64,000 nucleotides of DNA, taken from Candidatus Multivorans sp. Its GTDB lineage: Bacteria > Acidobacteriota > Thermoanaerobaculia > Multivoradales > Multivoraceae. This document shows positions 11,640-15,005 of the stretch, in pieces (position 1 is the stretch's first letter; each line of letters starts with the position of its first letter). The notes under the pieces were generated by a model. It saw nothing but the letters and a program-made list of their open reading frames with translations. It was not told where the DNA came from and did not search any database. The DNA is taken from contig OZ242040.1 of NCBI GenBank assembly GCA_965205095.1, forward strand, positions 3,116,176 to 3,180,175. The letters are read 5' to 3'. Both the position numbers and the translations under genes were made by a program.

Positions 11640-15005
<3,366 letters not shown>

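Follow-up and report, generated by a model that had tools for sequence, protein, structure and literature searches.

A variable homopolymer tract within a type III mod gene of uncultured Acidobacteriota, very probably a slippage-prone on/off switch

We analysed a 21-nt G:C homopolymer located inside a type III mod gene on a 64,000-nucleotide stretch of Candidatus Multivorans DNA (the window). Sequence comparisons make it very probable that this tract is an on/off switch prone to slippage, of a kind already known but in a bacterial lineage new for it. At the orthologous linker site, about ten related assemblies carried a pure C-run of C9 to C27, and all three reading frames were seen, which supports the proposal of the preliminary description that this mod gene contains a simple-sequence contingency tract. 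In the genome of the window itself, the switch is probably moot, as the mod gene there also has a change of Gln99 to a stop codon.

The features of the mod gene and of its neighbour, in window coordinates, are as follows.

11640..15005, minus strand: type III mod gene, read in one frame from ATG 15005 to 11643 (1121 codons plus stop)
14709..14711, minus strand: in-frame TAA, codon 99 of mod
13476..13490, minus strand: methyltransferase motif IV (DPPYN)
12630..13475, minus strand: target-recognition domain region between motifs IV and I, an allelic cassette
12606..12629, minus strand: methyltransferase motif I (FAGSGTTG)
12303..12374, minus strand: low-complexity interdomain linker upstream of the tract, poorly conserved in the alignment
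12280-12300: homopolymer tract, C21 on the coding (minus) strand and G21 on the plus strand, codons 902-909 of mod
11643..12278, minus strand: Mod C-terminal domain, 212 aa, translated solely with the tract in frame
11994-11992 (+1 state) and 11983-11981 (-1 state), minus strand: out-of-frame stops obtained by frame simulation
8269..11505, minus strand: type III res gene of 1078 aa (ATG 11505), separated from the mod stop by 134 nt

The mod product matched the PADLOC profile MTase_III PDLC03646 at 1e-204 and Pfam N6_N4_Mtase at 9.5e-23, while the NCBIfam models gave a sub-threshold CcrM-like match and nothing else. It is laid out as an N-terminal domain, a beta-class N6-adenine methyltransferase core, the linker and a C-terminal domain, and its motifs are arranged in the order that defines a type III Mod, namely motif IV, recognition domain and motif I (FxGxG). 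The solved structures related to it by sequence were EcoP15I Mod and two other Mod-type methyltransferases, and no more; the match to EcoP15I Mod (4zcf_A) was at 5e-30 and covered the core only, residues 417-724 of the 1022-aa query.

The res product matched PADLOC REase_III PDLC03654 at 4e-188 and also Pfam ResIII (helicase). As expected of a type III system, mod and res were adjacent and co-oriented in the window and at all the orthologous loci, and res was intact at each of them (1077-1090 aa in the orthologue gene calls). Translational coupling of the two genes was deemed unlikely, because 134 nt lie between them in the window. The orthologous loci were syntenic, running through PCMT, an MFS transporter, small variable genes, mod and res, and then PALP/ABC permease. 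The GC content of the mod-res island (window 8000-16000) was 63-65%, and that of its flanks 68-71%. In relatives, the slot between the MFS transporter and mod was occupied by an HTH_3/Peptidase_M78 pair, DUF1828, DUF6978, AAA_14/DUF4143 or a BrnT toxin, and it looks like a variable defence hotspot. In the window, two small minus-strand ORFs without Pfam matches, 15372-15869 (165 aa) and 15097-15312 (71 aa), lie just upstream of mod, and similar-sized genes were present at their position in L087, L001 and L002. A promoter scan revealed no promoter-like site and terminator-like sites only at background level, and the window contained no Rfam matches and no tRNA.

The mod gene turned out to be longer than the 941-aa ORF (ATG 14465) from which the preliminary description had started, as the frame continues upstream to ATG 15005. 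This ORF is the longest one in the window copy and lacks ~180 highly conserved N-terminal residues, some of which rank with the best conserved of the family. The 98-aa ORF preceding it matched positions 3-94 of the PDLC03646 profile, and the two ORFs are separated by the in-frame TAA alone. At codon 99 we observed CAA (Gln) in L084, L087 and L088, which have 94-97% DNA identity to the window; compared with these relatives, the window has a C-to-T nonsense change that interrupts the mod frame between the conserved N-terminus and the C-terminus. Unless the TAA represents an error or a minority variant, the window copy is probably a pseudogene or null variant, non-functional at any length of the tract. 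Because this stop is independent of the tract, an in-frame tract in the window does not mean 'ON'. Compared with L001, to which it is 94% identical, locus L065 had lost 1 nt from the N-terminal part of mod (L065:5368) and gained a 9-nt in-frame tandem duplication (ATGATGGCT; L065:6302-6310). The additional deletion in L065 and the TAA in the window indicate that some mod copies are decaying.

The tract at 12280-12300 counted exactly 21 consecutive G on the plus strand. On the coding strand, it is read as caC-(CCC)6-CCg, giving His902-Pro903..909, and translation thus bore out the in-frame His-Pro7 reported earlier. It sits at 80% of the mod ORF, 3′ of all the catalytic and recognition elements. 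Its placement after motif I was correct, the distance being 101 codons, and the ~230 codons said to remain beyond it should be 212. In simulations, changes of +/-1 and +/-2 nt led to the loss of these 212 residues and their replacement by a junk tail of ~100 residues, in agreement with the earlier statement that any +/-1 nt change truncates the C-terminal region.

A run of this kind is exceptional in its surroundings. G21 was the sole homopolymer of at least 7 bases in the 64-kb window, where the runners-up were G6 and C6, and a first-order Markov model predicted 8e-7 runs of its length in the window. CCC accounted for 35% of the Pro codons in mod, res and the MFS gene, so codon usage was ruled out as the source of the poly-Pro linker; six consecutive CCC codons would arise from it with p ~2e-3 per locus. 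Other simple repeats in the 64-kb window did not go above 4-5 units of di- or trinucleotides. Switching by inversion or of the shufflon type was also dropped, since the region 8-16 kb contained no meaningful inverted or direct repeats.

Relatives were obtained from a protein search that yielded at least 8000 homologues, and the DNA of the closest loci was then compared; the related records are titled uncultured Thermoanaerobaculia or Vicinamibacteraceae. Among the matches listed, the closest homologues had a proline run at the exact alignment position of the tract, after which several diverged. The lengths and frames of the tract were as follows.

Window: C21, in frame
L003: C21, in frame
L086: C9, in frame
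L085: C13, in frame
L169: C13, in frame
L170: C17, in frame
L002/L004: C13, -1
L001/L005: C27, -1
L065: C18, -1
L087: C11, +1
L088: CCCAC14, +1
L132: at least C15, the contig ending inside the run (L132:1-15)

We observed that the tract length varied between strains and placed mod in or out of frame, the calls being uncertain to +/-1. Both the +1 and the -1 states were present, and every shifted locus was 1 nt away from in-frame. Among the relatives, Pro3 to Pro9 were observed at the tract. Five of nine tract loci had a broken linker frame, whereas all 71 family loci without a tract kept theirs (Fisher p = 5e-6), the latter being more distant loci in which both flanking motifs could be located; their longest linker run did not exceed 7 bases. 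The earlier alternative that Mod homologues might encode this position with mixed Pro codons was not borne out, the syntenic orthologues having a pure homopolymer at the site; within the clade, the tract is absent from L089 alone, whose linker is of mixed codons. A simple neighbour-joining tree, built without bootstrap support, placed L089 inside the tract-bearing clade. L169 also contained a second, shorter run (C7; L169:5246-5252) in the N-terminal part of mod, which is absent from the window.

Different states were also mixed within protein clusters of 90% identity. In one such cluster P0067 was truncated and P0128 full length (1119 aa); in another, P0065 was truncated and P0126 and P0127 were full length. 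A third contained P0004 in the -1 state together with P0123 in the +1 state, and a fourth contained P0015 with Pro7 and P0124 with Pro4. P0121 (980 aa), a relative of the window allele, was in the -1 state.

Next to the variable tract, these genes displayed multiple central alleles of the recognition domain, which is a property of phase-variable mod genes. Between motifs IV and I we distinguished at least five unrelated groups of recognition domains with 23-28% amino acid identity, and these were enclosed by conserved N- and C-terminal Mod parts, as seen in L087, L088, L003, L086 and L089. The window and the near-conspecific loci L087 and L088 share 94-97% identical flanking DNA and have three different recognition domains, those of L087 and L088 being 25-27% identical in amino acids to that of the window. 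This allele structure mirrors that of the classical phase-variable modA and modH genes (PMC5909438, PMC4525171).

The domain encoded downstream of the tract is a conserved part of this family, as judged from more than 50 aligned homologues. It had no Pfam match, and a Foldseek search against the PDB gave nothing significant (best TM-score 0.23). Its AlphaFold2 model was confident (mean pLDDT 83.8) and of mixed alpha/beta type, with the first ~17-33 residues after the tract modelled as disordered (pLDDT <50 for residues 1-17). The linker was the least conserved part of the Mod family alignment. A run of variable length would be tolerated here because the post-tract region is modelled as disordered and the linker is so little conserved.

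In every shifted locus, the 212-codon domain was stop-free in its own frame and well conserved. Its dN/dS was 0.17-0.29, and that of the N-terminal region 0.22-0.29. Purifying selection was evident even where both of the compared loci were shifted, dN/dS being 0.17 for L087/L088 and 0.285 for L001/L065.

From these observations, we consider it probable that the tract is a slippage-prone contingency locus held in a permissive interdomain linker of the type III mod gene. Slipped-strand mispairing during replication would add or remove C:G pairs. Steps of 3 nt would change the number of prolines in the disordered linker and nothing more, and runs of 3-9 prolines would be expected to depend on EF-P. 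Steps of +/-1 or +/-2 would put the ribosome out of frame past codon ~909, exchanging the conserved 212-residue domain for the junk tail. Given the conservation of this domain among the aligned homologues, its loss would most likely inactivate the Mod-Res complex. From EcoP1I and EcoP15I, type III Res is known to depend on Mod. The OFF state should not be self-toxic, since Res needs Mod for DNA recognition, and another slip could reverse it. The outcome would be a mixed population of restricting and methylating cells together with non-restricting ones. What the sequences show directly is the anatomy of the gene, the conservation of the tract with its diversity of length and frame, the selection acting on the downstream domain and the allelic diversity of the recognition domain; that the cause is replication slippage, that the change is heritable and reversible, that the OFF state lacks function and that there is an adaptive benefit are parts of the scheme that we infer. 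It may also be that runs of 21-27 nt mutate so fast that the locus is a noise generator and not a stable two-state switch.

As the tract comes after both the methyltransferase core and the recognition domain, 'OFF' may leave methylation intact. A rather unlikely extension of this is that the tract toggles the C-terminal domain alone. In that case, the in-frame state would produce a Mod working with Res and the out-of-frame state a stand-alone methyltransferase, with res perhaps reduced by polarity, and the result would be a heritable uncoupling of restriction and modification, long kept in marine-invertebrate symbionts.

We regard it as unlikely that the C-run acts through non-heritable slippage of RNA polymerase or the ribosome, such that all the alleles yield both full-length and truncated Mod and the DNA length tunes their ratio, in the manner of a rheostat or of two isoforms. 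The run extends up to 27 nt, far above the 8-9 bp RNA:DNA hybrid, and slippage during expression would explain why the downstream domain is under purifying selection even in lineages with an out-of-frame consensus. For A/T runs of at least 9, transcriptional slippage is established; it is best documented on these and not on C/G runs, which counts against this explanation. The length diversity, moreover, is directly observed at the DNA level and is sufficient alone. The two kinds of slippage are not mutually exclusive, and on so long a run transcriptional slippage may add non-heritable heterogeneity to a contingency locus.

One challenge to switching comes from a pair of assemblies. L088, labelled KELL22-1_SAMN22237336, is a re-assembly, and L170 corresponds to GCA_022826745.1; these are apparently two assemblies of one sponge-metagenome dataset. 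Over 15,009 nt, they were identical except at the tract, which read CCCAC14 in the former (L088:8704-8721) and C17 in the latter (L170:8704-8720), and this difference flips Mod between a truncated product of 1002 aa and a full-length product of 1119 aa. Either the sample was truly heterogeneous or the homopolymer calling was unreliable; the discrepancy agrees with a reversible length change inside a clonal population but is not diagnostic of one. As L088 and L170 differ at the tract alone, the on/off call from one assembly is therefore not trustworthy to +/-1 nt, and some of the out-of-frame calls could be homopolymer miscalls.

Taken to its end, this argument would make the tract a fixed poly-proline linker, a stable in-frame CCC run whose out-of-frame public alleles are all miscalled in length. 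That each shifted locus is 1 nt from in-frame agrees with such a linker, as does the tolerance of proline insertions in a disordered region. We nevertheless find it quite improbable. Close relatives range from 9 to 27, far past miscalling, and the shifted loci include the short runs C11, C13 and C14, which short reads normally call well. Pure CCC runs are not predicted by codon usage, and no frame break was found in the 71 tract-less loci. Furthermore, L085 and L169, with 98.9% identity across the 3′ 4.7 kb holding the tract, differ by an extra base at the 5′ border of the C13 run and by the lack of one A 25 nt further downstream (L085:4263-4310 against L169:7641-7690). Eight codons of L085 are consequently read in another frame, after which the C-terminal domain is restored. 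In our reading of the two sequences, this fixed pair of indels is the trace left by a genuine frameshift that was later compensated.

The nonsense codon of the window and the 1-nt deletion of L065 could indicate decay instead, with the tract being a mutational hotspot in an R-M system on its way to loss and without adaptive switching. The second frameshift that the deletion adds in L065, the out-of-frame state of about half of the alleles and the GC content of the island, below that of the flanks, are in keeping with decay. Nevertheless, this explanation is very unlikely, given the dN/dS values of 0.17-0.29 across the N- and C-terminal regions, the intact res at every locus and the purity of the tract across lineages with dS up to ~0.7. 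The exchange of recognition domains between near-identical genomes also implies a gene in use.

The origin of the tract as a technical artefact, from the two-colour Illumina poly-G signal or from chimeric assembly, was rejected as extremely improbable: some related datasets are apparently NovaSeq, if the study link given below is right, and two short-read contigs, L132 and L084, terminate within or close to the tract, but the same codon position is occupied in about ten independent assemblies (different projects and assemblers), multi-megabase contigs included, with conserved coding sequence on both sides and the frame kept in the window. The caveat raised in the preliminary description hence fails for the tract itself, which has a conserved coding context in independent assemblies, and remains justified for its exact length, as L088 and L170 demonstrate. 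The short-read contig of L084 stops ~110 nt before the tract with a divergent tail (L084:3021-3070), and the contig ends of L132 and L084 suggest that assemblies tend to break at the tract.

Among known systems, the contingency locus described here is most readily compared with modH, modJ and modL of H. pylori and modU of C. upsaliensis, which likewise belong to type III systems and have a G:C homopolymer of at least 9 within the mod ORF (PMC5909438). The likeness extends to the strain-variable tract length and to the multiple central recognition-domain alleles. A mononucleotide run of at least 9 is the published criterion for a potentially phase-variable mod gene, and simple repeats occur in 17.4% (662/3805) of REBASE type III mod genes, environmental species included (PMC5909438); the run inside the present mod ORF is C21. 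The differences are several. The host here is an uncultured Acidobacteriota of ~68% GC, whereas those genes belong to small AT-rich Epsilonproteobacteria; the Mod subfamily is far larger (~1120 aa, PADLOC PDLC03646) and includes additional domains at both its N- and its C-terminus. With up to 27 nt, the tracts exceed those of the known genes, and they lie at 80% of the ORF, after the catalytic core and the recognition domain; the switching proposed here is predicted from sequence.

ModA phasevarions often carry an inactive res. In the present case, res is intact at every locus, which suggests that the system still serves in defence and makes such a role no less likely than a purely regulatory phasevarion. 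ModA of H. influenzae and Neisseria shares with our locus recognition-domain alleles, on/off frames and a type III mod gene that carries a contingency repeat (PMC1976455, PMC4525171), but the ModA repeat is a tetranucleotide (AGCC/AGTC) and the one found here is a mononucleotide. ModA systems are described as epigenetic regulators (PMC1976455).

EcoP15I Mod2Res (PDB 4ZCF) shares with the window a homologous methyltransferase core, the mod to res gene order and the helicase domain of Res (Pfam ResIII). EcoP15I Mod, however, is 644 aa long and is devoid of the ~400-aa N-terminal domain of the window Mod, and the 212-aa C-terminal domain of the latter had no significant fold match to it. Phase variation is not known for EcoP15I mod. 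In the type I system NgoAV of N. gonorrhoeae, a frameshift in the poly-G of hsdS truncates the C-terminal part of an R-M subunit without abolishing the protein, and changes the specificity. There, the affected protein is a type I specificity subunit, whereas here the recognition domain is untouched. In C. jejuni Cj0031, the switch is a G:C homopolymer that lies within a large ORF and at a distance from its 5′ end. Cj0031 is a single-polypeptide type IIG enzyme, unlike the Mod/Res pair studied here, and is described as a phase-variable R-M enzyme (PMC4889913).

The sample labels Plut_, TARA_ and KELL22 suggest that these bacteria were recovered from coral, ocean and Ircinia sponge metagenomes, and neighbouring records named after sponge symbionts suggest the same. 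Type III R-M components were enriched in sponge metagenomes in a NovaSeq study (PMC9531527), to which we infer that 'KELL22-1' belongs. Our literature search brought up no relevant description of a phase-variable system in Thermoanaerobaculia or other Acidobacteria. Small-genome, host-adapted pathogens are the main source of the phase-variable type III methyltransferases known so far. The preliminary description had called the host context unusual; the phylum is indeed new, although the context is less unusual than claimed, since environmental species already figure in the REBASE mod survey (PMC5909438).

In practical terms, gene callers and assemblers split or truncate mod genes of this kind. 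If the tract functions as proposed, it would extend contingency loci to a new phylum and to a new Mod subfamily, in which very long runs are accompanied by exchanged recognition-domain alleles and the tract itself has been conserved across lineages with dS up to ~0.7. The tract may also serve as a natural handle on the function of the uncharacterised, conserved C-terminal domain.
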